From NCBI GenBank assembly GCA_043826565.1, contig JBDRPX010000004.1, positions 10,232 to 74,231 of the forward strand: a stretch of DNA of 64,000 nucleotides, given 5' to 3'. Position numbers and translations under genes: made by a program. Below, in pieces: positions 43,213 through 64,000 of the stretch. Numbering within the stretch: position 1 is the first letter of the stretch; every line of letters starts with the position of its first letter. Under the pieces are notes generated by a model, which did no database searches, was not told where the DNA came from, and worked only from the letters and a program-made list of their open reading frames with translations. This DNA is from Candidatus Omnitrophota bacterium. GTDB lineage: Bacteria > Omnitrophota > Gorgyraeia > B26-G9.

Positions 43213-44034
43213 ATGCTTGTTTCTATAATCATACCTTGTAAAAATGAGAGTGAGAATATAAAGAGCTTACTGGAAGCTGTGCAAACGCAGGAACTTGATT
43301 TTGATAAAGAGATAATTACTGTTAATAATGTAAGCCCTTCGGGCCGGGCGAGGAATCAGGGCGCGGATAGAGCAAAGGGAGAAATCCTGGTTTTTCTGGA
43401 TAATGATATTAGTTTTGGCAGTTCTAGAGTTTTAGCAAATTTAATCGCGCCGCTTTTGGAAGACGCGGAGATCGGGATTTGCGGAGTTTCTCAAAAAATT
43501 CCCAAAAACGCGAATTGGTTTCAGCGCTGGTGTGCTAAAGAAATTCCGCATACTGAGCATTTAGTTGTGGAGAAAATAGAAGAACGGGGAATGGTGGGGG
43601 GCGCCTGCTGCGCGATAAAGAAAGAATTGTTTTTTAAATCCGGAAGATTTAATGATGGATTAAAAAGAGGGGTAGATGTTGAATTTTGTGCCCGGGTAAA
43701 GGCAAATAATTATCGTGTTGTGATTGTGCCGCAGACCTGGATTTATCATCCGCCATCGGAGAATTTATTTGAGTTTATAAGTTTGTGTTTTCGCAATGGA
43801 AAAGCTACCGCGTTTATTGACCGGTATTATCCGGAATTAAATTTTGATGTCGGCGTAGGAGAAAAAATTGGCCCGCTTAAGAAAAAAAGTATTTTAGAAA
43901 GGTTCTTACGCTATGGCCAAGGGGTTTTGAAAGCTATAGTATTTTTAAAGATATTAAATCTAATCTATAGGATTGCTTATTTTTTAGGATATATTCAGGA
44001 GAAAATATTCGGCGGGAGAAAAAATGTACGATAA
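43213..44034 (+). CDS. family 2 (GT-A) glycosyltransferase
   Basis: VSIIIPCKNE start and the DND motif. Confidence 0.7.
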   Translation: MLVSIIIPCKNESENIKSLLEAVQTQELDFDKEIITVNNVSPSGRARNQGADRAKGEILVFLDNDISFGSSRVLANLIAPLLEDAEIGICGVSQKIPKNANWFQRWCAKEIPHTEHLVVEKIEERGMVGGACCAIKKELFFKSGRFNDGLKRGVDVEFCARVKANNYRVVIVPQTWIYHPPSENLFEFISLCFRNGKATAFIDRYYPELNFDVGVGEKIGPLKKKSILERFLRYGQGVLKAIVFLKILNLIYRIAYFLGYIQEKIFGGRKNVR

Positions 44035-45376: not shown

Positions 45377-45377
45377 A

Positions 45378-46433
45378 GTGACTATGAAAAAAATATTAAT
45401 TATTAACTTAGGCGGAATCGGTGATTTCTTGCTTTCTACTCCGGCTGTAAAGGCTTTACGGAACGCTTATCCTGATGCGGAAATAGATCTATTGGCTTCT
45501 GCCGGGATCGGGAAGATTGCCCGGGGATTGGATTATATAAACAGGATATTTGTATTTGATATTAAATACGGTGGAATTATCCGCTGGCACCGGATATGGA
45601 AAAACATCTCAACCTTATTAACGCTGCGCAGAAGGCACTATGACTTGGCTGTTAATATGCGTACGATTACTTCCGCAGACAGCGCGAAAAAGATAAAATT
45701 CCTTTTAAAAGTAATTTCCGCGCATAAAACAGCCGGCAGAAATACCGAGGGACGGGCTTCTTTTTTTAATATAAAAATTCCGGAAACTGATGACGGAGAT
45801 AAATATGAGAGGGAATATGATATTGATACAGTAACAGCTTTAGGCGTGAAAGTGCTGGATAAAAAAGTATCCTGGGAGATTAAGAGTAGTGCTCAGGATA
45901 ATATTGAAAACATGCTTAAAGAAAAAAAGGTAAGTAAAGAGGATATTCTTATTGGTATCCATCCCGGAGGCATGTTTTCGCGCCGCTGGCCCTTAGAAAG
46001 ATTTGCCAAGGTGATTGATGCTATTGCCGAAGCAATGCCGGCTAAATTTATTATCACCGGTGCTAAATTTGAAGAAGTATTAGGTAATACCCTGAAATCT
46101 ATTTCCGATACCGAAGTTATAAATGCGGCGGGGGATTTGGACATCCATGAATTATTTGCTTTAATTAAAAGATGTAATGTTTATATATCGAATGATACCG
46201 GGCCCATGCATATCGCGGCGATACTGAAAACGCCCTTAGTGGCGATATTCGGGCCGGGGCATTTTATTCGTTATGATCCCCGGAATATTTCCGATAGGGT
46301 CAAAGTTTTGTATAAAAAGAAGGAGTGTTCGCCTTGCTTAAAGGTGGAGTGTGATGATCTGCAGTGCTTAAAGGCTGTTTCCCCGCAGGAAGTTATTGAC
46401 GCGGTAACGCAATTATTAGAGGAAAAACAGTGA
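45378..46433 (+). CDS. family 9 glycosyltransferase (heptosyltransferase-like)
   Basis: ILIINLGGIGDFLLSTPAVKAL N-terminus, with GPMHIAA near the C-terminus. Confidence 0.7.
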   Translation: MTMKKILIINLGGIGDFLLSTPAVKALRNAYPDAEIDLLASAGIGKIARGLDYINRIFVFDIKYGGIIRWHRIWKNISTLLTLRRRHYDLAVNMRTITSADSAKKIKFLLKVISAHKTAGRNTEGRASFFNIKIPETDDGDKYEREYDIDTVTALGVKVLDKKVSWEIKSSAQDNIENMLKEKKVSKEDILIGIHPGGMFSRRWPLERFAKVIDAIAEAMPAKFIITGAKFEEVLGNTLKSISDTEVINAAGDLDIHELFALIKRCNVYISNDTGPMHIAAILKTPLVAIFGPGHFIRYDPRNISDRVKVLYKKKECSPCLKVECDDLQCLKAVSPQEVIDAVTQLLEEKQ

Positions 46434-47098
46434 TTAAACGTTTATACACCTGGTTTCATAAAGCAGTTGCTAAGGATGAAGAAAAAGATCAGCCTTCGGG
46501 CGGGGTTTGGCCGCATGTAGTCAGAAAAGGGGTTTTAAATATCTGCCAGGCAACCCAGGGGGCAGTCATGGAAGTCGGCTGCGGGGAGGGATTATTTATC
46601 CGCCAACTGGCATTAAATAATCCAGGACTGAAAATTACCGGAGTGGATAATAATAGTGTTAAATTAGAAGAAGCAAAACGTAAATGCCATGAGCTTGGGC
46701 TGGTCAATGTTAACATAATATTTGCTGACGCAGCCAATATACCTGTTTCTGCGGAATGTTTTAATTGCGTTGTGTGTATAAATGTTTTGCTCAATTTACC
46801 TTCGATAGAAGTAGTCCGAAGCATTATAAAAGAAATATCCCGGGTTTGCGCGTGCGGAGGAAAGTTTGTGTTTGATTTTCGTAATTCCGCTAATCCGGTG
46901 GTTAATTTAAAATACAGGCTGGCTCCTTATTATGATGAAACAGTTAAAAGAGACAGTTTGCCGTTAAATACATATTCATCCAAGCAGATCACGGCGCTGT
47001 TATCGGAAAACAAGTTTAAGGTCATTAGCCGGAAATATCTGGGATTTCCTTATAATCGGTTAGCGCCGATTATTATAATTGAGGCGGAAAAATGTTAA
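46430..47098 (+). CDS. class I SAM-dependent methyltransferase
   Basis: Motif I VMEVGCGEG. Confidence 0.6.
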   Translation: MIKRLYTWFHKAVAKDEEKDQPSGGVWPHVVRKGVLNICQATQGAVMEVGCGEGLFIRQLALNNPGLKITGVDNNSVKLEEAKRKCHELGLVNVNIIFADAANIPVSAECFNCVVCINVLLNLPSIEVVRSIIKEISRVCACGGKFVFDFRNSANPVVNLKYRLAPYYDETVKRDSLPLNTYSSKQITALLSENKFKVISRKYLGFPYNRLAPIIIIEAEKC

Positions 47099-48246
47099 GA
47101 AAAGTACCAATAGTTGCTGTGCCCATCGAAATTACGGATTTATTAGCGGGGTTTAATGCTTTTAGCCGGAAACTCAGTCCCGGCAGTGAACCTTCGGATG
47201 TATTTTTTGCTGATTCCGCAACAGCCTGTCTTTACACATTCCTGCAGATTCTTAAAGGTCAGTCAGATAAACAGGAGGTCATCCTGCCGGCTTATACGGC
47301 ATCGACATTAGTGATCGCGATTCAAAAGGCGGGATTAAAACCAGTGCTTTGTGATATCCGCCTGACTGATTTTAATATGGACCCGGATTCATTAAGGCAG
47401 ATTATTACGGAAAAGACATTAGCGATTATCGGTGTGCATATGTTTGGAATTGTTGATGCGGGGTTGGGTAATATTAAAAAACAATTTCCGGAAATTATCG
47501 TTATTGAAGATTGCTGCCAGGCGATGGGAAGCGAAATTGACCGTGAATTTGTGGGCAAAATGACAGATGTAAGCCTGTTTAGCTTTAATCGCGGTAAAAA
47601 CATTCCCACTTACGGCGGCGGTTGTTTGGGTTTAAATATTAAATTTCTTATAGACAAGATTAAGCAGTCCGGGGTAAGGGAACAGCCGGTGACATTGGCG
47701 CAGGAACTTAAATCAGCAGTTAAGCTGATGGCTTTAGCTGTTATTATGCGGCCGTGGGTATATGGGGCGGCTTTGCCGTTTATCGCGGGTTTAAAAGAGA
47801 AAGCTCCGGCAGAGGATTTTGCGGTCCAGGGGTATACGAAGTTTCAATTAGGTGTTCTCGGTTCTCTATTAAAGAAAATGAAATCACTAAGTCAACAGCG
47901 TTATATTAATGGAATGAAATTAATCGAAGGATTGCAGAAAACAGAAGGGGTTTGTACCCCGGAAATCGCGAAAAATACTAAGCCGGCATTTAACCGCCTG
48001 CCGGTTTTATTTAATGATCCTAAGGAGAAAGAAACCACTCAGAAGAATTTAAGTAGGTCCGGCATAGAAACTTCCCAAATGTATTTTAAACCATTGCATC
48101 ATATTTTTGCTTTAGGATATAAAAAAGAAGAATTTTCTAACGCGGTTTATCTGGCGCAGCATCTTTTGACTTTACCAACACATCCTTTGCTTGCGGATAG
48201 CGATATAGAAAAGATCATTAAAACGATAAGGCGGGTAGTTAAATGA
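47092..48246 (+). CDS. DegT/DnrJ/EryC1/StrS-family PLP enzyme (sugar aminotransferase-like)
   Basis: FSFNRGKNI putative PLP-Lys block and overall DegT-like blocks, but divergent. Confidence 0.5.
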   Translation: MLRKVPIVAVPIEITDLLAGFNAFSRKLSPGSEPSDVFFADSATACLYTFLQILKGQSDKQEVILPAYTASTLVIAIQKAGLKPVLCDIRLTDFNMDPDSLRQIITEKTLAIIGVHMFGIVDAGLGNIKKQFPEIIVIEDCCQAMGSEIDREFVGKMTDVSLFSFNRGKNIPTYGGGCLGLNIKFLIDKIKQSGVREQPVTLAQELKSAVKLMALAVIMRPWVYGAALPFIAGLKEKAPAEDFAVQGYTKFQLGVLGSLLKKMKSLSQQRYINGMKLIEGLQKTEGVCTPEIAKNTKPAFNRLPVLFNDPKEKETTQKNLSRSGIETSQMYFKPLHHIFALGYKKEEFSNAVYLAQHLLTLPTHPLLADSDIEKIIKTIRRVVK

Positions 48247-49280
48247 AAAAAATTCTTATTGCCAATTTTGGGGGGATCAAAGATATTATGCTTTCTGCTC
48301 CGGCTTTGCAGGCGCTAAAAAAAGCTGATCCTGATTCCGTTCTGCATATGCTTATTTTCCCTGAGCCGTTAGAATATGCGATGATGCTTTCCTGTATAGA
48401 TAATATCACTGTTTTGCAGAGAGAGCTGGTTTGTTTGTCCTCTAATTTAAAACTGCTTTTTGAATTACGTAAAGAAAAGTTTGATATTATGATCAATATG
48501 CGTACGCTTTTTACTAAAAAAGAAGCGAGTTACATCCAGTGGATTATTAATGCGGTTAACCCTCAGTTAAAAGTCGGCAGAAATACTGATGGCCGCGGTA
48601 AATTTTTTGATATTAAGATTCCGGAAACATCGGTCGGAGAAAAGTATGAGATGGAATATAATAGTGATATCGTAAAAGCTTTGGGAGTCGAAGAGGTAGG
48701 ACGGGATATTGATTTCCCCATTGATGAAAAAAGCCAGGAATACGCGGATGATTTGCTCAAACGTGAAGGTATTGAAGAAAATATGTTTCTTATGGGGATT
48801 CATCCCGGAGGAGGAGTGTTACGGCGCTGGTCAATAGATAAATTATGCGAGGTTATAAGAGAACTTAATAAGAAATTCTCATTTCGTTATGTGATCACCG
48901 GAAGTAACGATGAAAAAGACCTGGGCGAATATATTGTTAAGGAAATAGAAGAGGGCCGGGTGATTGACCTTACCGGAAAACTGGGCATGCCTTCATTAGG
49001 CGCGGTAATTAAAAGATGTAATTTGTTTGTTTCTAATGATGCCGCTCCGTTACATATTGCCGCGGTATTTAAAACTCCTTTGATCGCTTTGTTTGGGTCT
49101 ACAGACCTAACGCGGTATGATCCGCGTAATATATGCGATAAAGCGGAAATTATTTATAATAAACAGGACTGCGCGCCTTGTAAAAAATCCAAATGTGAAG
49201 CAATAAAGTGCATGGATAGTATAACCATAGAGTCGGTAGTTCAGGCCTGTTTGAAATTTATTAATCCGGTGCAGCTTTAA
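48243..49280 (+). CDS. family 9 glycosyltransferase (second copy)
   Basis: KILIANFGGIKDIMLSAPALQAL and APLHIAA blocks; paralog of the gene at 45378. Confidence 0.7.
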   Translation: MKKILIANFGGIKDIMLSAPALQALKKADPDSVLHMLIFPEPLEYAMMLSCIDNITVLQRELVCLSSNLKLLFELRKEKFDIMINMRTLFTKKEASYIQWIINAVNPQLKVGRNTDGRGKFFDIKIPETSVGEKYEMEYNSDIVKALGVEEVGRDIDFPIDEKSQEYADDLLKREGIEENMFLMGIHPGGGVLRRWSIDKLCEVIRELNKKFSFRYVITGSNDEKDLGEYIVKEIEEGRVIDLTGKLGMPSLGAVIKRCNLFVSNDAAPLHIAAVFKTPLIALFGSTDLTRYDPRNICDKAEIIYNKQDCAPCKKSKCEAIKCMDSITIESVVQACLKFINPVQL

Positions 49281-49880: not shown

Positions 49881-50687
49881 TTAGTATTGAATCAAACTGC
49901 CTTGCTGGCGTGCTTTTTTTAAAGCATAGCCAAAGGCAAAGAAGCTTAAAGGGGACAGGATAATCGAGAAGATCAAAAGGATCGCGCATTCTGAGGAGAG
50001 CTGGCTCAAAGTGTAGTTTTTATATACGGCTAGTTCAATTGCTCTGATCGCGTGAGTGATCGGTAAAAACTGGGCTATTGTCTGCAAAAACTTAGGCATT
50101 ACCGCGATTGGGAAAAATACTCCGCCTAATAACCCTTCCAGATTATTGATCACCCAGGCAATGGGATTACCGCGCTTGAAGACAATGATAAAACAAGCCG
50201 AGAGTATGCCTAAACTGCTGAAGCAGATGATCGTCAGTATTAAGATTATGATCGCCGAAAGGATATTTACATTCCCAAAATCTATATGGAATAAAAATAC
50301 ACCTAAGATAAAATATATACATATATTAAATGTGGCAAAGATGAGATTCCAGCAGGCCATACTGCCTAAGATAATGCCCACGCGGGTGGGAGTTAAAAGA
50401 AGGGTTTCCAAAGTGCCCATGGTCTGTTCCTGGCGGACCTGGTCGGCAAAAGAACCCATGCCCACTCCGATATAGCTGAAAAAGGCCATGCTTAAAAGTA
50501 CATAAGAAAAGTAATTCACCCCGAATTCCTGCAGATGTTTACTTATCCGGCCGCTGAAGAGTTTATCGATAAAAAAATAGGTAAGCAGAAGGACAAAGAC
50601 GCTGAATATATTCAGAAAAAAAGAAAGCTTATAACTGGTTTCAATGAGCAGGTCTTTTTTTATTAAGGCATATAATTTTCTAAACAT
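49881..50687 (-). CDS. ABC-2 type polysaccharide exporter permease (Wzm-like)
   Basis: Six TMs with an ABC-2 membrane profile. It overlaps the ATPase gene start. Confidence 0.7.
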   Translation of the reverse strand: MFRKLYALIKKDLLIETSYKLSFFLNIFSVFVLLLTYFFIDKLFSGRISKHLQEFGVNYFSYVLLSMAFFSYIGVGMGSFADQVRQEQTMGTLETLLLTPTRVGIILGSMACWNLIFATFNICIYFILGVFLFHIDFGNVNILSAIIILILTIICFSSLGILSACFIIVFKRGNPIAWVINNLEGLLGGVFFPIAVMPKFLQTIAQFLPITHAIRAIELAVYKNYTLSQLSSECAILLIFSIILSPLSFFAFGYALKKARQQGSLIQY

Positions 50688-51462
50688 TTTTTGTTAGTTC
50701 CCTATATATATCGGTTAAACCGGCTTTGGGCATTTTAGTTTGCTTCCTTAGTTCTTCAATTGTTCCGTTTCCGCAGAGTTTTCCTTTGTGAAGGATGAAA
50801 AATAAATCACAAAGATCTTCAGCTTCTCCTATATTATGTGTAGCCATAAGAATTGTTTTTCCCTCGTCGGAAAGGTTCTTAATTGTAGTTTTTAAAGTCT
50901 CAGAAGAATTATAATCCAGGCTTTTCATGGGTTCATCTAAAAGCAAAAGGGACGGTTCGTGCAGAAGCGCTCTGATCAGGGAGAGTTTTCTTTTCATGCC
51001 CGTAGAATATGAATCAAAGCGCTGGTTTTGATAGTCAATGTTGAATAACTGAAGGAGCTCGGCTAGCCGTTTTTTTGTTTGAGCCTTATTTAAGCCGTAC
51101 AAAGCGGCGAAAAATTCCAGGTTTTGTAATCCGGAGAGTCTCCAGTAGAAACTGCGGTCGTCATTGGAAACCAGCCCGATATTTGATTTAACAGCGATGT
51201 CATTTGTTTTGACCGAATAATTGTTTACGATAACATTGCCTTCATCAGGAAACACAAGCGTGGAAATTATTTTAAGTAAAGTAGTTTTGCCTGCGCCGTT
51301 TTCTCCGAGTAAACAGGCGATTTTCCCTTGGGGTAAAGAAAAAGATACATTGCTTAATGCGGTTATCCGGGGCATTTCCCGCAATAGAAGCATATCAGTG
51401 ATTGAGGCAGGAGTTTGAAATTGCTTGGTTAAATTTTCTATGCTTAATATTGTATTATTCAT
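50680..51462 (-). CDS. ABC transporter ATP-binding protein (Wzt-like)
   Basis: Walker A GENGAGKTT, signature YSTGMKRKLSL, and Walker B LLLDEP. Start taken at the ATG at 51462 (the TTG at 51498 is also possible). Confidence 0.8.
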   Translation of the reverse strand: MNNTILSIENLTKQFQTPASITDMLLLREMPRITALSNVSFSLPQGKIACLLGENGAGKTTLLKIISTLVFPDEGNVIVNNYSVKTNDIAVKSNIGLVSNDDRSFYWRLSGLQNLEFFAALYGLNKAQTKKRLAELLQLFNIDYQNQRFDSYSTGMKRKLSLIRALLHEPSLLLLDEPMKSLDYNSSETLKTTIKNLSDEGKTILMATHNIGEAEDLCDLFFILHKGKLCGNGTIEELRKQTKMPKAGLTDIYRELTKNV

Positions 51463-51801
51463 GTAGATAAGGTTAACAGATAAGCCTGTTTTCGTCAAGG
51501 TACAAGACAGTCGCTAAGCGCTCAGCTACTGCGTTATTTTTTCGCTTACTTGTGCGACGTGCATTTTGCACGCCTCCGCGTTCGCTCAAAAAAGCCTTGT
51601 ATCTGAGCACTTTTCGACAGCTTGTATGATTCTTTATGGTTTTTGTTTAAGTTATCTGTGTCTTGGGTCTTGCGTCTTGAGTCTATTAATTTTTTCCCTT
51701 GTAAGTGTTTTTATGACTGTGATACAATTAAATAAATAGGGGCGGGGCAAAAATACCGCAGATATTTCATGGAATGGATTATTAAAGACAAGGAGTGGGG
51801 T

Positions 51802-53308: not shown

Positions 53309-53758
53309 ATGGAAGAAATCATTCTGAAGGCTAAAGTTGATCTTTTGTGCAAGCAGCTGCGGGAAACCGGGAGTATTCAGGTATCTGTGTCCGGCAATTC
53401 TATGTTTCCGTTTATGAAAAACGGAGATATGCTGCTGGTTGAGCCGATAAAAATAAAAGATGTTTTTCTCGGGGAAGTAGTAGTTGTCTATGCGCATAAT
53501 AATCTCTACTGCCACAGGGTTGCATTTAAAAATCCTAAATTTATTCAAACAAAAGCAGATGCCTTAGTACTCTGGGATGTTCCGGCAAATCAGGAAGACT
53601 TGATCGGAAAAGTTGTCGGCCGGGTCAAAAAAGGGAACATAATTCGTATTGATAATGGATGGCTGAGGATCGCGGGAATTTTAATATTAGGGTTTTCTTT
53701 TTTGGCCGCGCCCTTATATATCCCTTTACGGATGATAAAAAGGCTATTTAGAAAATGA
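53309..53758 (+). CDS. S24/S26-family (signal-peptidase-like) serine peptidase with C-terminal TM
   Basis: The SGNSMFPFMKNGDMLLV motif is characteristic of the S24/S26 catalytic Ser region. A downstream Lys candidate is present, followed by a hydrophobic C-terminus. Confidence 0.55.
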   Translation: MEEIILKAKVDLLCKQLRETGSIQVSVSGNSMFPFMKNGDMLLVEPIKIKDVFLGEVVVVYAHNNLYCHRVAFKNPKFIQTKADALVLWDVPANQEDLIGKVVGRVKKGNIIRIDNGWLRIAGILILGFSFLAAPLYIPLRMIKRLFRK

Positions 53759-54921
53759 GTACTTCTCTTACGGAAAAGCAGGCGATATTTGATTATTTTG
53801 TATTCACTCTTATCGCGAAACCTTCATTATTTGTCTTGGAAGATTATTCCGAGTTATTAAAATCAATGGACTGGCCTTATTTTTTAGAAAAGGTTTTTCG
53901 CGAGGGTATCTCCGGTTTGATCTTTTACCATGTGCTTAAAACTAAAAATTGCCATATATTTCCTGATGATGTCCGGGAGCAGTTAAGATATGATTATGAG
54001 AACAATCTGGGCCGGAATTTATTTTTAAGTCTTCGGACAATAGAATTCCTGGATTATCTGAATAAAGAAAATATCCGCGTATTGTTACTGCGCGGAGCGG
54101 ATTTTATCGACCGAATCTACCCGGATTACGGAATCCGGGCCATGGGAGATGTGGATATTATTATTGCTGAGGAAGATTTTAAGCGGGCTGAAAAAATATT
54201 CAATACTCTTGGGTATGAGAATTACAAAGGATACCGGTACTTGTTTTTAAAAGATGAGGTTTATATCGATGTTCATCTTGATCTTGCCGGTTATTGGCGA
54301 ATCCCATCACGTTTGCATACGATTAGCATTAAAAATGAAGATGTTTGGCGAGATGCCCAGCCCATAAATGATGTTCGCCCATTGATCCGGAAATTAGGGG
54401 TATATGACGCGATTCTTGCGGCTTGTGTTCATATGCAGGAACATTCGTTTAGCCGGTTGATATGGTTTGTCGATGTTTTGTTTTTGATAAAAAATGAAGG
54501 TGAGGATTTTAACTGGCCGCGGTTATGGGAAAGAGCCCGGCAGTGTAATCTGCATAAATCACTCATGTTTGCGCTTAGTTATTTGCAGGCCCGGGAGCTT
54601 ATAATTATTCCGGAAGATATGCTGCGGAATTTTAAGCAGGTGCCTTTAAATGGGTTTGAGTCAAGGTCCTTGCAGATACTTAGAATTAATAAGCGGGAAT
54701 ATATATCCGGAGAATTACTGTTCTTTTTTTCTCTGGGGACTTTAAAAGAAAAACTTAAATATATTAAAGAAGTACTGTTTATTAAAAAAGAGTTGTTTCC
54801 TTCGGTGCTCCCAAACGCCAATATCTGGAATTATATATGCCGGTTTTTTAGGATAGTATGGTACGGAGTGAGTAAATTATTCGCGGCATTTAAAAATGAA
54901 AACAAATTGATAAGCAGATAA
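53755..54921 (+). CDS. uncharacterised nucleotidyltransferase-family protein (PF14907-like)
   Basis: ~388 aa with the minimal NTase core GDVDIIIAEED. Its neighbourhood (kinase + PqqD) fits families seen in RiPP-like cassettes. Confidence 0.5.
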   Translation: MSTSLTEKQAIFDYFVFTLIAKPSLFVLEDYSELLKSMDWPYFLEKVFREGISGLIFYHVLKTKNCHIFPDDVREQLRYDYENNLGRNLFLSLRTIEFLDYLNKENIRVLLLRGADFIDRIYPDYGIRAMGDVDIIIAEEDFKRAEKIFNTLGYENYKGYRYLFLKDEVYIDVHLDLAGYWRIPSRLHTISIKNEDVWRDAQPINDVRPLIRKLGVYDAILAACVHMQEHSFSRLIWFVDVLFLIKNEGEDFNWPRLWERARQCNLHKSLMFALSYLQARELIIIPEDMLRNFKQVPLNGFESRSLQILRINKREYISGELLFFFSLGTLKEKLKYIKEVLFIKKELFPSVLPNANIWNYICRFFRIVWYGVSKLFAAFKNENKLISR

Positions 54922-54925
54922 GATT

Positions 54926-55762
54926 ATGAGAGAAATATTATTAAACATCGGCGGGATAGCGGTATTAGTTGCTAATGGCAATGAAGAGTTTATTTCTTTG
55001 TTAAAGGATAAATATAAAGATTTTGTCATGGAGTGTTCCGGGCTCGAAAACATCCGGATTGAGATGAATAATAAACGGATTGAAAACGAAACTCCCCGGA
55101 TTACAATTGATAAAGATGAGCAGCAGTATTCGATTATCGGTGATGAGTTCTTGGGCAAGCTGAATATAGAAGATAAAAGATGTGTTGTTTATATGCGAAA
55201 CAATGAGAGTTTGTTTGATACTTTCTTGAGGGTGCTTTTTTCGGTATTACTTGTTTATCAGGAAGGATTTTTGGTGCATGCTTCGGGTATATCCCGGGAG
55301 GGAAAAGGATTTCTTTTTCCCGGAGCTTCCGAACATGGTAAGACAACTACCGCGCGCCGGTTTTGTGAATCGGTGATATTTAGTGATGAACTGGTAATTG
55401 TTAAAAAACAAGATGACGGATTTTACCTTTTCCCTTCGCCGTTTGCCGGAGAATTCGTTGGTAGTAATATGAATGAACCGGCACGATTAGAAAAAGTTTT
55501 TATACTTACCCGGGAACATATCGGCGTAACGGAAAAGGTTAAGGATTTTGAGAGTTTTCTTAGCCTGCTGGAACGTATATTTTTCTTTGCTTCTGACGCG
55601 GTCCTAAATCAGAAGCTTATTGATTTAGCTAAACAATTATGTACAAGAGTTGCTTGTTTTAAAATGAATATAATGGAAGAGAAAAACTTAGAGAGGATTT
55701 TTGATGAAATTTCAAAAGATGATGATCGAGCGCAATGCCCAGGCAGCCTGGCAGGAAATTGA
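54926..55762 (+). CDS. HPr-kinase-C-terminal-domain-like P-loop kinase
   Basis: P-loop GASEHGKTT within an HprK-C-like region (LVHASGISREGKGFLFPGASEHGKTT). There is no HPr kinase N-terminal domain. Confidence 0.55.
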   Translation: MREILLNIGGIAVLVANGNEEFISLLKDKYKDFVMECSGLENIRIEMNNKRIENETPRITIDKDEQQYSIIGDEFLGKLNIEDKRCVVYMRNNESLFDTFLRVLFSVLLVYQEGFLVHASGISREGKGFLFPGASEHGKTTTARRFCESVIFSDELVIVKKQDDGFYLFPSPFAGEFVGSNMNEPARLEKVFILTREHIGVTEKVKDFESFLSLLERIFFFASDAVLNQKLIDLAKQLCTRVACFKMNIMEEKNLERIFDEISKDDDRAQCPGSLAGN

Positions 55763-56021
55763 AGATAATGTTGTGGTTGTTACTCCGGCTAATAGTAAAG
55801 TTCATGTTTTATCCGGTATCGGCGGGCGAGTTTGGCAGCTGCTGGAAGAGGAAAAAACCGGACAACAGCTTAGCGAGATTATAATTGAGGAATTTGATGT
55901 GGGGATAGAGCAGGTCCAAGCGGATGTGGATGGTTTTTTGCAGGAGCTTTTGGAGAAAGAGATTATAAAAGTACAGAGGACAGAGGACAGAAAACAGAGG
56001 ACAGAAGAAACTACGTGCTAA
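55704..56021 (+). CDS. PqqD-family peptide-binding chaperone (RiPP recognition element-like)
   Basis: ~100 aa with the PqqD signature AAWQEIEDNVVVVTP...VHVLSGIGGRVWQLL...EF.V...V..DV..FLQEL. It overlaps the end of the kinase gene. Confidence 0.6.
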   Translation: MKFQKMMIERNAQAAWQEIEDNVVVVTPANSKVHVLSGIGGRVWQLLEEEKTGQQLSEIIIEEFDVGIEQVQADVDGFLQELLEKEIIKVQRTEDRKQRTEETTC

Positions 56022-56088
56022 AATTTTTTTCAGACTTCTGATCTCTGACATCGGATTTCTGACTTCTTGTTTTCCTTCGGAGAAGCGT
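55975..56088. repeat. quasi-palindrome (cagaggacagaggacagaaaacagaggacagaag ... cagacttctgatctctgacatcggatttctgacttct)
   Basis: The left arm lies inside the 3' end of the PqqD-like CDS (encoding QRTEDRKQRTEE). The right arm is intergenic before the rSAM gene. Confidence 0.55.
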
Positions 56089-57096
56089 ATGACTATTTGG
56101 GATGAGGTCGGCAAGGCTATAAAAGAGAAGTATATTCCGATTACTATGGTTCTGGAAGCTACCCGGCAATGTAATCTGCAGTGCTGCCATTGCTATAATA
56201 TTAAGGACAATGTGCAGCTGAGTTTTGATCAGATAAAAGACATTGGCGGGCAGCTGCGCCGGGCCGGATGTTTGTTTCTGGTGCTTACCGGAGGCGAAGT
56301 GTTTACAAAACCGGATTTTCTGGACATTGCCGGATATTTACGTAAGCTGGGGTTTGATTTAAAAGTTTTTACTAACGGTACTCTGATTACTTCACAAATG
56401 GTGGAAAGAATAAAAGATCTTGCTTTTAGTGAGGTGGGAATAAGTATTCAGGGAATCAATGCTCAAACGCATGATCGAATTACGGGAAATCCGGGATCTT
56501 TTGCCAAAGCTTTATCGGCAGTAAAGATACTTAAGCAGGCTAAGGTTCCCGTAGGTATAAAAACTACTTTAATGAAAACTAATTTTAGTGAATATAAAGA
56601 AATCATGGAATTAGCGGACAATCTGGGAGTTACCTATGTTATTGATCCGGTTGTTTCTCCGCGGGATGATGGATCAAAAGATGTTTTATCCTGCCGGTTG
56701 AGTGATGGCCAGCTTGAAGAGTTTTATCGGGAACAATTTTCTAAAATTGATTCTGTTTCTGCAGAAGTCAATAATGAGGATATTTGTGAGGCGGGTAAAA
56801 TATTCGGCAGTATTTCGGTTTTAGGTGATGTGTATCCCTGTATTCAAATTCCTTTGAAATGCGGTAATGTTTTCCAGCAGGAGTTTAAAGAGATCTGGGA
56901 TAATAGTGATATTTTAAATAAAATGCGAACAGTAAAACTTTGTGATATTGAAGAGTGTGCGACTTGTAAGATAGCTTATGGCTGTACCCGATGCCCGGGG
57001 CTGGCTTATTTAGAGGACGGAGATTTGTTTGGGCCGTCTTCGGTGGCGTGTATGAACGCGCGTATCTATGAGAAAATTAAAGAGTTAAAAATATAA
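56089..57096 (+). CDS. radical SAM enzyme with C-terminal SPASM-like Cys-rich domain
   Basis: CNLQCCHC (C-x3-C-x2-C) near the N-terminus, and a C-terminal CDIEECATCKIAYGCTRCPG...VACMNA Cys cluster. Confidence 0.8.
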   Translation: MTIWDEVGKAIKEKYIPITMVLEATRQCNLQCCHCYNIKDNVQLSFDQIKDIGGQLRRAGCLFLVLTGGEVFTKPDFLDIAGYLRKLGFDLKVFTNGTLITSQMVERIKDLAFSEVGISIQGINAQTHDRITGNPGSFAKALSAVKILKQAKVPVGIKTTLMKTNFSEYKEIMELADNLGVTYVIDPVVSPRDDGSKDVLSCRLSDGQLEEFYREQFSKIDSVSAEVNNEDICEAGKIFGSISVLGDVYPCIQIPLKCGNVFQQEFKEIWDNSDILNKMRTVKLCDIEECATCKIAYGCTRCPGLAYLEDGDLFGPSSVACMNARIYEKIKELKI

Positions 57097-57100
57097 TATC

Positions 57101-59056
57101 ATGGGATTAAAAATTAAAAATAATATTGGCAATAAACTTCTCGTTCAGATGATTATTGTGGTAATGATCATCGCCGCGGGATTCTATTCAATTATCAGCA
57201 TGCAGACTAAGGAGCTTGAGAAAAGAATATTCGATAAAGCTAAATTGTTTTCCACGATCCTGGGAGTGCATCTGGATAGAATAATCAGTGATAATATTTC
57301 CGCCTATAATAGCCTGCAAATGATTGTTAAGGGGATTGCTAAAACACATGAATCAGTAGAAGATATCCGGATTATTGCTCCGGAATTTATTGTCTTAGCT
57401 TCAAGTTCTCCGGAATATGTATGGCAGGCGGTAGATTCCGAGTATGTCGAAGTGATAAAAGATGTTGCCGCGAATATGAAGCCCCGGTCTTTGCTTAAGA
57501 CGGAATTAGGTAAAGACCTGGTTATCCATTTTATGCCTCTTTTGTCTTTGGATAAAGAAAAGCGGCTGATCGGAGTTATGCAGATCGCAGCGCGGTTTCC
57601 CTCACAGCAGGCGCAGACAATGGCTTATTTGCGCAGCAATAAGTCTGTTTATTATAAGGAGGAAGCCGCTGGATTTGCCCAGCAGGTATCTAAAGATCTT
57701 AAGAGCGCTTTGGATGAAGTGGATAAGAATTTTAGATATTTGGATGCTCTTTTGGCGAGTATGTTAAAGGATGATGAAATTCAGGATGTAAAACTATTTT
57801 CACATGATTTGCGTTTATTAGGATCCGGCAGTTCCGGACGCAAAACGCCGTTTATTTCTCAAAGAGAAATTGCTTTATATGAAAAAGCTGTTTTAGGTGA
57901 AGAAACATTGAACCTTAAGACCCCGGGGAAAAATGAGCAGCGCGAATTAGTCAGCCCGCTGTATTTAACACAAAATAATAATCGGGAGATCATTGGCGCG
58001 GTGGGAATCACAGTTTCCCTGATCAGGATAAATGCTTTAGTAGAGGCCCGGAGAAAAAATATTCTGGTGATGAGCCTGGTTATTATTGCCGCGTTTTGTT
58101 TGTTGATCGGTGTGTTTTTCAGAAAGACGGTTATGCTTCCGATAGATAAACTCATGGCCATGACTCAGCGGATAGGAAAGGGAAACTTCTCTCAGAAAGT
58201 AGTGATCAACTCTAATGATGAAATCGGCAGTCTGGCCCAGGCTTTAAACCAGATGTCGGATGAGTTGTTTAAATCAAAACAGGAAATAGAAAGATGGAAT
58301 CTTACGCTCAAAGATCGTGTGGTTGAGGTTACTAAGGAACTTCAGCAAAAGCAGGCCCAGCTTATGGAATCCGAAAGAATGGCGTCTTTGGGGGTGCTGT
58401 CGAGCGGGATTGCTCATGAAATAAATAATCCCTTGGGAATTATTCTCGGGCACGCGCAAATGCTGTTAAAGGAATTGAACACAAAAGGTAATATCCAGAA
58501 TGCCCAGGAAGCGGCGGTTCTTTTAAAGACCATAGAAGAATATACCAAGCGGTGTTCGTATATCGTAAATAGCCTCCTGGAATTTTCCCGAAAAAAAGAA
58601 TTGCAGTTTCAGTCTGTTTCGGTGACGGCGGCAATAGAGAATGCTTTAATGTTTACGAGCAGCCGTTTGGGGCAAAAGGGAATAAATGTAACCAAGGAAT
58701 ACAGTAAAAATATGCCTCAAATTTCCGCGGACTCAATACATCTGGAGCAGGTGTTTATTAATATAATTCTTAATGCCGAACAAAGTATGTCCGGAGGCGG
58801 CCAGCTGAAAGTAACCGCGGATATGAAAAAAAATGATATTTTGATCAGCTTTTGTGATACCGGACAGGGAATAGCTGAGGATGATCTTAAGAAAATATTT
58901 GATCCGTTTTTTACCACGCGTCAGCCGGGAGAAGGATCCGGATTAGGGCTGGCGATTAGTTATGGAATTATTAAGGCGCATAGCGGAGATATAATTGTGG
59001 AAAGTAAAAAAGGCCAAGGCACAAAAGTAATGGTGAAACTGCCAATAAAAAAATAA
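57101..59056 (+). CDS. sensor histidine kinase (TM - periplasmic/sensor region - HAMP - HisKA - HATPase_c)
   Basis: H-box GIAHEINNPLG and the G1/G2 boxes (DTGQGI, GSGLGLAIS). Confidence 0.8.
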   Translation: MGLKIKNNIGNKLLVQMIIVVMIIAAGFYSIISMQTKELEKRIFDKAKLFSTILGVHLDRIISDNISAYNSLQMIVKGIAKTHESVEDIRIIAPEFIVLASSSPEYVWQAVDSEYVEVIKDVAANMKPRSLLKTELGKDLVIHFMPLLSLDKEKRLIGVMQIAARFPSQQAQTMAYLRSNKSVYYKEEAAGFAQQVSKDLKSALDEVDKNFRYLDALLASMLKDDEIQDVKLFSHDLRLLGSGSSGRKTPFISQREIALYEKAVLGEETLNLKTPGKNEQRELVSPLYLTQNNNREIIGAVGITVSLIRINALVEARRKNILVMSLVIIAAFCLLIGVFFRKTVMLPIDKLMAMTQRIGKGNFSQKVVINSNDEIGSLAQALNQMSDELFKSKQEIERWNLTLKDRVVEVTKELQQKQAQLMESERMASLGVLSSGIAHEINNPLGIILGHAQMLLKELNTKGNIQNAQEAAVLLKTIEEYTKRCSYIVNSLLEFSRKKELQFQSVSVTAAIENALMFTSSRLGQKGINVTKEYSKNMPQISADSIHLEQVFINIILNAEQSMSGGGQLKVTADMKKNDILISFCDTGQGIAEDDLKKIFDPFFTTRQPGEGSGLGLAISYGIIKAHSGDIIVESKKGQGTKVMVKLPIKK

Positions 59057-59108: not shown

Positions 59109-60521
59109 ATGCACAAAGAGCATATTTTAGTTGTCGATGATGAGCATGGAATGCGGGAATATCTAAAAAAACTTTTAACGGATAATAATTATTTCGTATC
59201 CCTTGCCGCTAATGGCGCGGAGGCATTAGAGCAGATAAAAAATGATGAGCCGGCTGTGGCCTTAATGGATTTTAAAATGCCGAATATGAACGGATTGGAA
59301 CTGTTGGAAAAATTTAAACAGATGCATCCGCATATAACGGTGATCATGATGACTGCTTACGGCACGGTGGAAAACGCGATCAAAGCTATGAAGCTGGGCG
59401 CGTATGATTATCTGAATAAACCATTTGAAATGGAAGAAATACTATTGGTTATCGCTAAGGCTTTAGAGAAAAGGCGTCTGGAAAAAGAAAACATTTCTTT
59501 GCGTAAGCAGATTAAAAAGACATATACTTTTGAGGATATTGTTTCCGGAAATAATCAAATGCAGCAAATTTTTGAAATTGTAAAAAAAGTGGCCGGGGCA
59601 AGAAGTACGGTGCTTATTGAAGGTGAAACCGGAACCGGTAAAGAACTGGTTGCCCGGGCTATTCATAACCTAAGCGAGCGGAAAGACAAGCCTTTTATTG
59701 CGGTTGACTGCAGTGCGCTTACGGAAAGTCTTTTAGAAAGTGAATTATTCGGCCATGTGCGGGGCGCGTTTACCGGAGCAACTAGAGATAAAAAAGGGCT
59801 TTTTGAAACTGCTGACGCCGGAACGATATTTTTGGATGAAGTCGGGCATATGTCTTTGGAGATTCAGTCAAAATTATTACGCGTATTGCAGGAGGGGGAA
59901 ATTAAGCGTGTCGGCCAGGCTACTCCGCATAAAGTGGATGTCCGCCTTATTGTTGCGGCTAATGAGCGTTTGGAAAACAGGATAAAAGCCGGTAAGTTCC
60001 GGCAGGACCTTTATTACCGGATCAATGTCGTGCCTGTATATCTGCCGCCGCTTAGAGAGCGCAGTGAAGATGTGCCTCTTTTGATTGAATATTTTATTGG
60101 GAAGTATAATAGTATTGAAGGCAAACAGTTAAAGGATATATCTCTGGATGCGTTGAAAGTTTTAATGGATTATTGCTGGCCGGGGAATGTGCGGGAACTG
60201 GAAAATCTTATTCATCGCGCGGTGGTTATGGAGGTAGGGCCAATGATCACTCTTAATGATTTGCCCGCAAACATAAGAATGCCGGAGACCGCGGAAAAGC
60301 GGGAGGAATTGCCGCGGATAAAAAATTTCCGCCAGGCCAAGCGAAAAATCGTAGAGTCATTTGAAAAAAGGTTTTTAACGGAAGCCTTGACGAGGCATAA
60401 CGGCAATGTGAGTAAAGCGGCGAGAGAAATGGGATTGGATCGGAGGAATTTGCAAAGGAAATTTAAAGATTGTGATATAGATTCTGATAAATTTAGAGTT
60501 AAGGGAAGACCTCTCACCTAA
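59109..60521 (+). CDS. sigma-54-dependent response regulator (REC-AAA+-HTH, NtrC family)
   Basis: REC Asp pocket (VVDDE...D), Walker A GETGTGKE, the GAFTGA motif, and a C-terminal Fis-type HTH. Confidence 0.9.
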   Translation: MHKEHILVVDDEHGMREYLKKLLTDNNYFVSLAANGAEALEQIKNDEPAVALMDFKMPNMNGLELLEKFKQMHPHITVIMMTAYGTVENAIKAMKLGAYDYLNKPFEMEEILLVIAKALEKRRLEKENISLRKQIKKTYTFEDIVSGNNQMQQIFEIVKKVAGARSTVLIEGETGTGKELVARAIHNLSERKDKPFIAVDCSALTESLLESELFGHVRGAFTGATRDKKGLFETADAGTIFLDEVGHMSLEIQSKLLRVLQEGEIKRVGQATPHKVDVRLIVAANERLENRIKAGKFRQDLYYRINVVPVYLPPLRERSEDVPLLIEYFIGKYNSIEGKQLKDISLDALKVLMDYCWPGNVRELENLIHRAVVMEVGPMITLNDLPANIRMPETAEKREELPRIKNFRQAKRKIVESFEKRFLTEALTRHNGNVSKAAREMGLDRRNLQRKFKDCDIDSDKFRVKGRPLT

Positions 60522-60565: not shown

Positions 60566-61039
60566 ATGAAGTGTCCGAAGTGTGATAGTGCTCTAAGGAC
60601 GGCTAAGCATAGTGATGTTACCATTGATTTCTGTGAATTATGTTATGGAATTTGGCTGGATAAAGGGGAGTTGGAAAGAATAGCTGCTTATGAAAAAAAA
60701 GACGCGGCAAAAGCTGTGGAAACCCTGAAGAACTTGCTTAAGGCGGAAAATGAAATTGTTCAGGAGCAGAGTATTTGCTGTCCGCATTGTGAACAACAAA
60801 TGCAGAAAATTAAATTCACCACTAAGGACGGAATTGTTGCCGATAAATGTGCCGGCTGCCAGGGTATTTGGTTTGATAAGGGTGAATTAATATCAATTAC
60901 TGATCATATGGACGGAAAAAAGAATTCTAATCCAGGCCAGAGCAGGGATGTTTCCCTCTTACCCAGCATATTGGCTTTGGGAGGTATCATTGCTTTGTTC
61001 ATTTTATTATTGATTTGGGCTATTAGTTATTTTAAATAA
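60566..61039 (+). CDS. membrane-anchored protein with two TFIIB-type zinc ribbons (zf-TFIIB/PF13453-like)
   Basis: Two copies of the pattern CPxC...C.LC.GIW.DKGEL, followed by a C-terminal TM helix. Confidence 0.6.
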   Translation: MKCPKCDSALRTAKHSDVTIDFCELCYGIWLDKGELERIAAYEKKDAAKAVETLKNLLKAENEIVQEQSICCPHCEQQMQKIKFTTKDGIVADKCAGCQGIWFDKGELISITDHMDGKKNSNPGQSRDVSLLPSILALGGIIALFILLLIWAISYFK

Positions 61040-61186: not shown

Positions 61187-61202
61187 TGGCATATTGATTG
61201 CT
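61187..61202 (+). promoter_or_regulatory. sigma-54 (-24/-12) promoter TGGCAT-N5-TTGCT
   Basis: Matches the TGGCAC-N5-TTGCW consensus with the invariant GG and GC. It is 46 bp upstream of the ATG at 61248 and downstream of the sigma-54 activator gene. Confidence 0.6.
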
Positions 61203-61247
61203 TACTATATATATGTATATTTAAAAAATAAAAAATTGGAGTTAATA

Positions 61248-64000
61248 ATGTCAGCTAAAACCCTAAAAATCTTCCTGTTTTTTACCCTTATTTTTTGTGT
61301 TGGAGTAGTACCTGCGCAAGCCGGTCTTAAGGTGCAAAAAGGTGAGACGACTATTGTAAACGGTCAAACATCAGTAACAGTTAATATTACAGCAGTTAGT
61401 GATCTTTCCCGCGCAATGCTGCTGATGTGGTCATCTGGTGATAGCGGTACAGACTGGGGAGAAGCCTGGCAGGCAACCGGATATCTTTCTTCTACCAGCC
61501 AGATAGCTTTTGAGCGGGTGGGCACACGGGATGATTGTCAGATCGGATATTATGTTGTTGAAGCAGAAAATCAGGAATTCGAAGTTATTGACCGGGGATT
61601 AATGGTTATCGGGGCTGAGAATACGATGCAGGATACTGATATTTCTCAGGCGATTGACCAGGCTCATACCGCTATAATCGCAAGCTCAATGTTAGGAGAT
61701 GCCACCGGCAATGATGATGAAGTGCATAAAGGTTTTGCCACGGTACATTTTGTGGATAATGATACTATTCGCGCGACTCGAGGCGCTTCCGGAACATATT
61801 CCTGTGATGTGCGATATCAGGTGGTACAGTGGCTGGATATAATCAATGTGCAAAGTAAAGAATTTAGTTCATCTATTAGTACTACGGAACTTACCCAATC
61901 TATTGATACTCCTGTAACTGCAACGCGTACCTGGTTATATGCTACAGCCAGCCATTCCGGAGGCAGCGGTATTTCTCAGGTTGCGGTGGATACCTATCTT
62001 AAAGACGGATCAACTGTTGGATTTAGAAGGCGTCAAGGAACTTATAGTGACGCGATTCGCTGGTGGGCCATAGAATTTCCCTCAGATGTTTCTGTCCAGC
62101 ACGTATCTGGGGCAGCGGCAACCGGTGATCTTACTGTGGTAACACCGATCAGTGCGGTGACGATTGCTAATTCCTGGTCCGATGTTTATAATAATTGTAA
62201 TGGTACCGGACAGGCATTACCTCGTCAGGCTTTTTATACTCAGATTACATCAACAACTCAGGTTACCAATACCCGGTATTACAGCGGGCAGGCTGCGGAT
62301 TTATCCGTGGAAGTGATTGATACCGCAGGTTGGACTGTTACAGTGCCTACGGTAAATATTACGGTAACTCCTAATATTACCAAGTCACAAACCGCGGGAA
62401 ACCTGGAAATTAAACTGGTATTCAGTGAAAGTATGAACCCTTCCGTATCTCCGGTAGTGATGTATGACCCGGCGGGAACGACCGGAGCGCAGTCATGTAC
62501 CGGAGGGACATGGTCAACAACGACTTATTCTAATGATACTTATACGGTATATAATGATGCGGCGATCGATGAGGCTACCGGCGACGGCATTGCAGCTGTC
62601 AGTGTCAGCGGAGCAAAGAGCGTGATTGGGGTTATTATGACCCCGGATACTAATGATACCTTTGTCATCGATACTGCAGCGCCGGCAAATCCGGGCGCGC
62701 CGTGTAATGCCTGGGAAAGTTCAGCGAAAATAACTTCGCTGACCGATGATACCTGGCAGGAAAACGATGATACACCTTATTTTGAATGGGCCGGAGCAAG
62801 TGACAGCGGCGGTTCCGGAGTAAGCGGTTATTCTGTTTATTGGGGGAATGATCCAAATGGTGTACCGGCGGCAACTCAGGAACAGACAGCAGCTAATTTT
62901 GATGTGACCGCAGCCACAGGAGACGGGGTATTTTTCTTAAGAGTAAGGACATTTGATAATGCGTCCAATTACAGTGACCCGGTGACCTTATTTACATTTC
63001 GTTATGATGCCGGGGCACCAACAAATCCGAATGTGCCTTGTGATGGCTGGCAGACAAGTTTAAAGTTAGATGCAATCAGTAATGATACCTGGCAGGAAAG
63101 TGACGATACTCCCTATTTTGAATGGACCGGGGCCAATGACGCTGGCGGTTCCGGAGTAAGCGGTTATTCTGTTTACTGGGGAACTGATCCCGGAGGAGAG
63201 CCCGGGATTACGCAGGCACAGGGAAACGCCGATTATGAAGTAACTACTCCAACCGGTGACGGGACTTATTATTTAAGGGTGAGAACATTTGATAATGTGA
63301 ATCATTACAGCGCGCCGGTAACTTTATTTACTTTTCATTATGATGCGACTGCGCCGTCTAATCCCAACACTCCCTGTAATGCCTGGGATTCTTCTTCTAA
63401 AAATACAGTGGTATCTGACAATATTCCGCAAGGCGCGGACGATACTCCTTATTTTGAATGGACCGGAGCCAATGACGGCAATGGGCAGGGAGTAAGCGGA
63501 TATTCTGTATATTTAGGAACGAATTCCGAAGGCGAGCCTGGAACTACTCAGGAGCAGTCCGGGGCCAGTTATGATGTAACGGCTTCAACGGGTGCGGGAA
63601 CATTTTATCTGCGGGTGCGGACTTTTGACAGTTTGGGGCACTACAGTGAACCAACAACTTTGTTTACATTTATCTATGATGAAACCAAACCGACAATGAG
63701 TATCGGCGTGCTTCCTGATCCTGCCGGACATCGGGCAGTGGGGGAATTGGCATTTATCCTGATTTTTTCCGAGTCAATGGATACCGGAACAATACCGGTA
63801 GTAACCTATGACCCGGCCGGGTCAACTGGTTTGCAAAGTGCGGCTACTAATGGTTCCTGGTCGACGACTAACAATAATAATGACACATATACCGTATATA
63901 ACAGCAGTGCTATCAATAGTTCAACGGGTGACGGCATTGCGGCTATAACCATTAGCGCGGCTAAAGATATTGCCGGCAATACAATGCTTGATGATACTAA
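61248..64000 (+). CDS. giant secreted repeat protein (3' end beyond window); at least three ~105-aa tandem Fn3/Ig-like repeats
   Basis: My own translation shows a continuous frame from the ATG at 61248 to the window end. Signal peptide ...VVPAQA. Repeats APxNPxxPCxxW...DDTPYFEWxGAxDxGGSGVSGYSVYWG...RVRTFDNxxxYSxPxTLFTFxYDA occur three times. Confidence 0.7.
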   Translation, partial: MSAKTLKIFLFFTLIFCVGVVPAQAGLKVQKGETTIVNGQTSVTVNITAVSDLSRAMLLMWSSGDSGTDWGEAWQATGYLSSTSQIAFERVGTRDDCQIGYYVVEAENQEFEVIDRGLMVIGAENTMQDTDISQAIDQAHTAIIASSMLGDATGNDDEVHKGFATVHFVDNDTIRATRGASGTYSCDVRYQVVQWLDIINVQSKEFSSSISTTELTQSIDTPVTATRTWLYATASHSGGSGISQVAVDTYLKDGSTVGFRRRQGTYSDAIRWWAIEFPSDVSVQHVSGAAATGDLTVVTPISAVTIANSWSDVYNNCNGTGQALPRQAFYTQITSTTQVTNTRYYSGQAADLSVEVIDTAGWTVTVPTVNITVTPNITKSQTAGNLEIKLVFSESMNPSVSPVVMYDPAGTTGAQSCTGGTWSTTTYSNDTYTVYNDAAIDEATGDGIAAVSVSGAKSVIGVIMTPDTNDTFVIDTAAPANPGAPCNAWESSAKITSLTDDTWQENDDTPYFEWAGASDSGGSGVSGYSVYWGNDPNGVPAATQEQTAANFDVTAATGDGVFFLRVRTFDNASNYSDPVTLFTFRYDAGAPTNPNVPCDGWQTSLKLDAISNDTWQESDDTPYFEWTGANDAGGSGVSGYSVYWGTDPGGEPGITQAQGNADYEVTTPTGDGTYYLRVRTFDNVNHYSAPVTLFTFHYDATAPSNPNTPCNAWDSSSKNTVVSDNIPQGADDTPYFEWTGANDGNGQGVSGYSVYLGTNSEGEPGTTQEQSGASYDVTASTGAGTFYLRVRTFDSLGHYSEPTTLFTFIYDETKPTMSIGVLPDPAGHRAVGELAFILIFSESMDTGTIPVVTYDPAGSTGLQSAATNGSWSTTNNNNDTYTVYNSSAINSSTGDGIAAITISAAKDIAGNTMLDDT

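Follow-up and report, generated by a model that had tools for sequence, protein, structure and literature searches.

Omnitrophota are uncultured, ultrasmall bacteria suspected of living attached to other cells, and the phylum is marked by its very long genes. Giant open reading frames (ORFs) with proposed adhesion roles, including some that encode Laminin_G_3 or discoidin domains, have been described in these bacteria (Seymour et al. 2023, PMC10066038). Two named classes of their giant proteins, the "Archaeovorins" and the "Dockerin-type" proteins, comprise at least 30,000 amino acids (aa) and are preceded by a locus resembling type II secretion systems and type IV pili (T2SS/T4P); Archaeovorins combine glycosyltransferase, TPR, and peptidase domains with many transmembrane (TM) helices, and Dockerin-type proteins carry dockerin domains and TSP3 repeats (West-Roberts et al., bioRxiv 10.1101/2023.11.21.568195). 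A "tandem-repeat scaffold" class of long Omnitrophota proteins has also been defined (bioRxiv 10.64898/2026.06.07.730766). Here, we analyzed a gene that begins at position 61248 of a 64,000-nucleotide (nt) stretch of DNA from contig JBDRPX010000004.1 (the whole stretch is referred to as the window) and that is still open at its last base. We conclude that this region, the 5' part of the gene, probably encodes the start of a very large, fiber-like surface protein that is exported by an Omnitrophota-like bacterium. The encoded protein starts with a signal peptide and a four-module beta-sandwich head, followed by a stalk of domains in the order B1-R1-R2-R3-B2.

The product is best read as a giant, adhesin-like protein, a type whose presence in Omnitrophota was already suspected (PMC10066038; 10.1101/2023.11.21.568195). 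Like the giant ORFs described from the same phylum, the gene and its relatives encode very long, repeat-built, largely unannotated extracellular proteins proposed for attachment; the relatives also carry Laminin_G_3, and the repeats derive from old duplications. The window protein is not a member of either named class. Its relatives are 4.1 to 6.1 thousand aa (kaa) in length, neither it nor its relatives have dockerin, TSP3, glycosyltransferase, TPR, or C39/S8 peptidase domains or any TM helix beyond the signal peptide, and the 61 kb upstream contains no T2SS/T4P-like locus. Term searches of the papers on Omnitrophota giant proteins found no mention of a sigma-54 box, an adjacent two-component pair, or head swapping. 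What this locus adds is a conserved sigma-54 control, a pattern of head swapping, and two domain families that lack curated models, namely, the 112-aa FN3-like R repeat and the four-module head. It offers a tractable, mid-sized example with a conserved stalk, a delimited variable head, and a predicted regulatory input.

Gene start and relatives of the giant gene

The features of the gene, all on the plus strand, are as follows.

61238..61241, plus strand: Shine-Dalgarno-like GGAG, 6 nt 5' of the ATG, read directly from the sequence
61248..64000, plus strand: ORF of the giant gene, one open frame of 917 codons from the ATG to the last base of the window
61248..61322, plus strand: Sec-type signal peptide, aa 1-25, with predicted cleavage between AQA and G
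61323..62342, plus strand: type A head, aa 26-365, four beta-sandwich sub-repeats of ~85 aa (aa 26-109, 110-198, 199-280, and 281-365)
62358..62669, plus strand: B1, Ig-like domain, aa 371-474, with the motif FSESM...YDPAG...NDTYTVYN...TGDGIAA
62670..63005, plus strand: R1, FN3-like repeat 1, aa 475-586 (repeat finding, BLASTP)
63006..63341, plus strand: R2, FN3-like repeat 2, aa 587-698 (repeat finding, BLASTP)
63342..63677, plus strand: R3, FN3-like repeat 3, aa 699-810
63678..64000, plus strand: B2, second Ig-like domain, aa 811-917 and beyond; the ORF leaves the window inside B2

The translated N-terminus is of the Sec signal peptide type (MSAKTLKIFLFFTLIFCVGVVPAQA followed by G, with the cleavage site judged by eye). 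This is the sole hydrophobic segment detected in the 917-codon ORF, and it is without a lipobox. The G+C content at codon position 3 (GC3) is 0.39, compared to 0.377 ± 0.035 in the other genes of the window, and the raised G+C of the gene sits at codon position 2, i.e., in the amino acid composition; the gene therefore looks native to the genome. A foreign origin for this G+C-richer gene was rejected on the same grounds.

We searched for the protein family exhaustively with HMMER across 1.84 billion representatives, using the whole 917-aa protein as the query, and found 954 proteins that match the whole query at E values up to 1e-3. The R repeat was found in 82 of the best 150 matching proteins. 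A word-index protein search was nearly blind to the family and returned one match each time. Related loci were located by a pattern scan of one genome per species. The best of these (L001, L002, and L004) are from metagenome-assembled genomes (MAGs) labelled Candidatus Omnitrophota and share 64 to 71% identity over the core/stalk, and weaker matches to the R domain come from Patescibacteria and other candidate phyla.

In L004, the giant gene aligns collinearly with the window gene across all 917 aa (60.5% identity) and is open for at least 4,259 aa, and a 4.8-kb metagenome contig (L037) encodes a protein with 62% identity to the window protein over residues 2-917. Other relatives are open for at least 4,996 aa (L008) and at least 4,108 aa (L006). 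The sole complete relative, the L001 product P0005, is 6,130 aa long. After B2, the relatives continue into a different, 119-aa Ig-like repeat, of which P0005 has at least 25 copies. P0005 also contains an insert made up of DUF2341 and Laminin_G_3, several regions resembling CARDB, and, at its C-terminus, a beta-propeller similar to BamB/PQQ propellers. The C-terminus of P0005 has no TM segment, and no NCBIfam sorting-signal model scored there. The original prediction, made from the DNA letters alone, had called the product a giant secreted protein whose gene continues past the window; the signal peptide, the open frame at 64000, and the lengths of L004 and P0005 all agree with that.

Three observations on the relatives are set apart here. 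In L002 (8810-21670), the giant ORF reaches a stop codon after 4,286 aa while still within a 119-aa repeat (...DDDYEGGFGSSCRGISSF followed by the stop); this suggests that the MAG contains a frameshift or an assembly error at that point and that the gene does not truly end there. A 5.3-kb contig binned as Candidatus Aenigmatarchaeota (L007/L039; QMZY01000070.1) holds a giant-gene 5' end that is 64% identical to the window core and, upstream of it, a fragment of a bacterial sigma-54 regulator; this is probably a mis-binned Omnitrophota contig. Four unrelated R-domain proteins (P0006, P0008, P0044, and P0058) terminate in ...[VI][VI]R, preceded by a few residues that look like a beta-strand (e.g., ...GIYFIIVEYDGRINTQKIFIIR), ends that may resemble C-terminal domains of the type IX secretion system (T9SS) type. 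The complete Omnitrophota relative P0005 does not have this end motif.

The repeat array and its age

R1, R2, and R3 are head-to-tail, in-register copies with a period of 336 nt, or 112 aa. Their starts at 62670, 63006, and 63342 bear out the three tandem repeats that had been proposed, though with a longer period than the ~105 aa given at the time. Pairwise BLASTP E values of 1e-49 to 1e-56 place their similarity far beyond chance, but the description of the copies as near-identical in both protein and DNA does not stand: they share 61 to 63% identity at the protein level and 64 to 70% at the DNA level, with a longest exact DNA word of 32 nt and a longest identical peptide run of 13 aa between any two units. 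Tandem Repeats Finder called no array at R1-R3. At sites where the units have the same amino acid, the codons are identical in only 49 to 58% of cases. The motifs originally quoted as shared are present in R1 and R2, and R3 departs from them (GNGQGVSGYSVYLG; FDSLGHYSEPTTLFTFIYDE). The signature of the 112-aa unit is D-x-x-A-P-x-N-P...PYFEW-x-GA-x-D...SGVSGYSVYWG...YYLRVRTFD...TLFTF-x-Y.

For the age of the array, we compared units across four relatives that keep the B-R-R-R-B core. The units cluster by position, not by protein. Window R3 is 69 to 72% identical to R3 of the other proteins and window R2 is 75% identical to R2 of P0005, compared to 61 to 63% for their own neighbors; for R1, the difference is marginal (64% at the same position versus 61 to 63%). 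Because same-position units, clearly so for R2 and R3, are closer to each other than to their own neighbors, the triplication is older than the split of these genes. The proposed recent expansion of the repeats is thus contradicted by identities of ~62%, heavily diverged synonymous sites, and grouping by position. This agrees with a 2026 preprint that reports old duplications as the general origin of repeat architectures in long proteins of Omnitrophota (10.64898/2026.06.07.730766). There is a lesson for annotation in that the repeats recognized by eye here are old and diverged and are not evidence of recent expansion or mis-assembly.

The two B domains bracket the array, as had been noted from the motif present on both sides of it. 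They are ~105 aa each, lie 1344 nt apart, and are 54% identical (E = 3e-26). From the spacing of the B domains, we considered a 448-aa B-R-R-R super-repeat that could extend further downstream and rejected it, given that in every relative the sequence after B2 is the 119-aa repeat array.

Repeats raise the question of whether the region could be a pseudogene or an artifact of assembly, produced by repeat collapse or mis-joining. The ORF does end at the edge of the window, and the relative in L002, with its mid-repeat end after 4,286 aa, may itself reflect a frameshift or an assembly error. However, the frame runs for 917 codons without a stop, it is collinear at 60 to 62% identity with the independent contigs L004 and L037, and its GC3 is typical of the genome. 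Furthermore, with a longest shared word of only 32 nt, the units should not cause collapse in assemblies built from k-mers or reads longer than that, and the age and divergence of the repeats make mis-assembly driven by them unlikely. We consider a pseudogene or artifact extremely improbable.

Predicted folds of the stalk and head

Structure prediction for one repeat, which had been suggested as a check, gave an FN3-like beta-sandwich for R. The model fits the seven-stranded beta-sandwich of about 90 to 110 aa that is expected for FN3/Ig-like folds, and its top structural matches include FN3 domains of titin and chitinase as well as SiiE, a giant adhesin, and SbsC, an S-layer protein. These matches are consistent with the adhesin- or S-layer-like organization proposed for the protein. 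In sequence, no part of the window protein has a match in Pfam-A or NCBIfam at E values up to 1 or in the PDB by sequence and profile searches, and no domain has a match in PHROG. The repeats are distinguished from the Pfam families fn3, Big_13, Y_Y_Y, and Big_6 by this lack of any Pfam-A/NCBIfam match and by their own 112-aa signature. In the relatives, fn3/Big_x models score weakly and inconsistently; in P0003, Big_13 and Y_Y_Y exceed the cut-off for the protein as a whole, with none of the individual stretches passing, and fn3 and the remaining fold-family models are below cut-off.

SiiE (Salmonella, PDB 2yn3) resembles the R model in structure without sequence similarity. SiiE-type adhesins are substrates of type I secretion, with the signal located at the C-terminus and none of the Sec type at the N-terminus; the SiiE/LapA/BapA type is further characterized by a C-terminal type I signal or RTX repeats and by a neighboring ABC/MFP/OMP exporter. 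Since the window protein begins with a Sec signal peptide, it is not a type I-secreted adhesin of this type. Other differences from that type are that P0005 ends in the BamB/PQQ-like propeller and has no RTX match and that the ABC transporter genes near the giant gene are of the ABC-2 type and on the opposite strand.

The 340-aa head was modeled with high confidence (pLDDT 91.3, pTM 0.91) as an all-beta assembly whose strand pattern has four-fold periodicity. Profile-profile comparison shows that its four sub-repeats are homologous (probability 84 to 98%, E values of 8e-6 to 7.5e-14). The head is a second, more diverged repeat array that was missed in the original prediction. The four-module assembly has no close counterpart among solved structures. 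The head contains a conserved G-T-G-x-A-F-P-R motif.

Another explanation is that the product is a receptor-binding device of phage origin or phage type, such as a tail-fiber-like protein or part of a tailocin-like particle, rather than a cellular adhesin. A search of viral folds (BFVD) with the head gave TM-scores of 0.33 or less, and no part of the protein matched a PHROG family. In addition, the protein has a Sec signal peptide, the codon composition of its gene is native, and the gene is surrounded by housekeeping, exopolysaccharide (EPS), and regulatory genes with conserved chromosomal synteny. We therefore regard a phage origin as very unlikely.

A conserved sigma-54-type promoter and an adjacent two-component pair

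Upstream of the giant gene are a putative promoter element and the genes of a two-component system.

57101..59056, plus strand: sensor histidine kinase, 651 aa, with HAMP, HisKA, and HATPase_c domains (Pfam)
59109..60521, plus strand: sigma-54-dependent response regulator with receiver, Sigma54_activat (E = 3e-71), and HTH_8 (Fis-type) domains (Pfam)
61187..61202, plus strand: sigma-54-type -24/-12 element TGGCATATTGATTGCT, with GG and GC 12 nt apart

The element fits the consensus TGGCAC-N5-TTGCW with fixed spacing and in the orientation of the gene; there are 61 nt from its first base to the ATG. With the GC at 61200-61201, the transcript would be expected to begin ~12 nt further downstream. 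It is one of two pattern matches in the 64-kb window and the only one that is both intergenic and correctly oriented. A box of the form TGGCA[CT]-N5-TTGC[TG] is also found 5' of the related gene in L001, L002, L003, L004, L005, L008, and L037. This amounts to 8 of the 10 loci, window included, compared to 0.014 boxes per kb as the background frequency across the 1.24 Mb of DNA that was fetched.

The response regulator has the domains of an enhancer-binding protein and is NtrC/AtoC-like, although it scores under every NCBIfam equivalog cut-off. Homologs lie upstream of the giant gene in 9 of the 10 loci, and a homolog of the kinase (~51% identity) occupies the same position in L001, L002, and L004. 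The regulator is likely the activator of the giant gene, and the kinase is likely the upstream sensor of the system.

The pair is part of a run of seven upstream genes that is conserved in L001, L002, and L004, with 31 to 65% protein identity. In order, the run encodes the following.

SurA-like protein
small signal-peptidase-like protein
NTP_transf_5 protein
HprK-like protein
radical S-adenosylmethionine (SAM)/SPASM protein
651-aa histidine kinase
sigma-54 response regulator

Between the regulator and the giant gene (60566-61039) is an ORF for a 157-aa protein with two TFIIB-type zinc ribbons. This protein is not conserved; L001 and L002 have unrelated ORFs of 283 to 296 aa at that position.

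Exchange of heads on a common stalk

With syntenic relatives that have a different head, homology starts in the linker that precedes B1 (~aa 365-367). Across the ten loci, there are five head types, with no BLAST match between types.

Head type A: window, L004, and L037
Head type B: L001
Head type C: L002 and L003
Head type D: L007 and L008
Head type E: L005 and L006

The type A head is also found inside other large proteins beyond the giant genes. Three proteins of ~1,500 aa (P0069, P0077, and P0135) have a type IV prepilin N-terminus, G|F[TS]L[MV]E, and an internal type A head at ~aa 440-830; it follows that the head is also displayed on pilin-like fibers. A 208-kb contig classed as viral (L040; IMGVR_UViG_3300032123_000052) encodes a stand-alone, 361-aa homolog of the head (7998-9083) with 40% identity and no signal peptide. 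It lies between a 492-aa protein, whose PHROG matches have no known function, and a coiled-coil protein of 2,302 aa, with an endolysin-like ORF close by. Because the type A head recurs in prepilin-like proteins and on a contig of the viral class, it behaves as a mobile extracellular module. This mobility is the main argument, and an indirect one, for the head as the ligand-binding end of the protein.

A more far-reaching interpretation is that the locus specifies a sigma-54-switched attachment organelle, in which the head is a cassette-like specificity module that serves to recognize hosts or prey and is traded horizontally among episymbiotic or predatory microbes and viruses. Related Omnitrophota may have swapped five unrelated heads on one conserved stalk, all at the same place in the chromosome, and the type A head may have moved among giant adhesins, type IV pilin-like fibers of other candidate phyla, and the 208-kb virus-like contig. 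We put this forward tentatively, as an idea that is more likely to be wrong than right. If true, it would mean that a head domain is shared among ultrasmall episymbiotic or predatory microbes and their viruses.

Head exchange also bears on the possibility that the product is an S-layer or coat protein that self-assembles into a lattice covering the cell, instead of a discrete adhesive fiber. The resemblance of the fold to SbsC is the one point in favor of this. The proteins SbsA and SbsC (Geobacillus, PDB 2ra1 and 4uj6) have no sequence match to the window protein and differ from it in size, in regulation, and with respect to the variable head. Neither SLH nor any other known cell-wall or S-layer anchoring model scored in the window ORF or its relatives. 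The relatives are proteins of 4 to 6 kaa with dozens of domains arranged like beads on a string, and the head is swapped between close relatives. Furthermore, sigma-54 and two-component control, as proposed here, is unusual for constitutive, very abundant lattice proteins. Taken together, an S-layer function seems quite unlikely.

Proposed function

The adhesin-like reading suggests the following sequence of events. The kinase would sense an external or envelope cue and activate the regulator, which would open the sigma-54 promoter of the giant gene. The giant protein would leave the cytoplasm via Sec, and its rigid beta-sandwich domains would form an extended stalk. As a rough guess, taking ~4 nm per domain and more than 40 domains, such a fiber would measure hundreds of nanometers. 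At the far end of this stalk, the exchangeable N-terminal head would bind a ligand on another cell or surface. Such binding would amount to adhesion, as part of a lifestyle associated with a host, prey, or a matrix. Head types could be compared with co-occurring partner organisms, and, at 340 aa, the head is small enough to be expressed for binding tests.

Several points weigh against this reading. We infer adhesion from the predicted fold and the architecture, and the proposal that the kinase-regulator pair drives the giant gene comes from adjacency and promoter type. The gene itself is visible to aa 917, and its full size would be at least ~4,000 aa as judged by orthology. The assignment to Omnitrophota is a putative one that follows the MAG labels of the nearest loci. 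Lastly, an outer-membrane secretion or anchoring device was not found in the window or in the complete relative P0005. Nevertheless, the S-layer, matrix scaffold (see below), phage device, and pseudogene explanations are all less well supported than an adhesin-like protein.

The EPS cluster and other genes of the window

A large EPS cluster (31200-49280) encodes a Wzc-like tyrosine kinase, Wzy-like and AsnB-like proteins, and a Wzx flippase, as well as methyltransferases, glycosyltransferases, PGA_cap, and a B12-radical SAM protein. Scores for the models associated with PEP-CTERM stay under the cut-offs in this cluster. The presence of an EPS cluster and a sigma-54 regulator prompted us to consider a PEP-CTERM/exosortase system. 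This idea is unsupported, as the models are below cut-off and P0005 has no PEP-CTERM-type end. The regulator adjacent to the giant gene scored 428 bits against the PEP-CTERM regulator model (cut-off, 502.6), and the Wzc-like protein was also below its cut-off.

The EPS cluster is relevant to a further explanation, in which the giant protein is a matrix or biofilm scaffold that acts with the product of the cluster and binds the cell's own polysaccharide, not foreign cells. Such a role would fit the presence of the EPS genes (Wzc-like, Wzy, Wzx, glycosyltransferase, and AsnB-like) on the strand of the giant gene at 31-49 kb and the lectin-like DUF2341 plus Laminin_G_3 insert in the relatives. 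However, the EPS genes are at least 12 kb away, with ABC transporter genes on the opposite strand in between, and a hypervariable head would suit varied external targets better than one self-made polymer. We consider a matrix scaffold unlikely and continue to favor an adhesin-like protein.

Directly 5' of the two-component pair (53309-57096) is a cassette that resembles those for ribosomally synthesized and post-translationally modified peptides (RiPPs).

53309-53758: small S24/S26 signal-peptidase-like protein
53755-54921: NTP_transf_5 protein
54926-55762: HprK-related/ScmC-like protein
55701-56021: 106-aa ORF, unlisted, PqqD-like by eye
56089-57096: radical SAM/SPASM maturase

A precursor peptide was not identified in the cassette. 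In L001, L002, and L004, the entire cassette keeps its synteny with the giant gene.

At 19532-22222, the window encodes an 896-aa Lys/Glu-rich protein that looks like a coiled coil and whose C-terminus, judged by eye, resembles TPRs. AT skew peaks sharply at the same place, reaching 0.40 at 20-22 kb. Across the whole window (1-64000), the GC skew is uniformly and strongly positive (~+0.2), and nearly all long ORFs are on the plus strand. The only clear exception to this strand bias is the ABC-2 transporter pair at 49881-51498.

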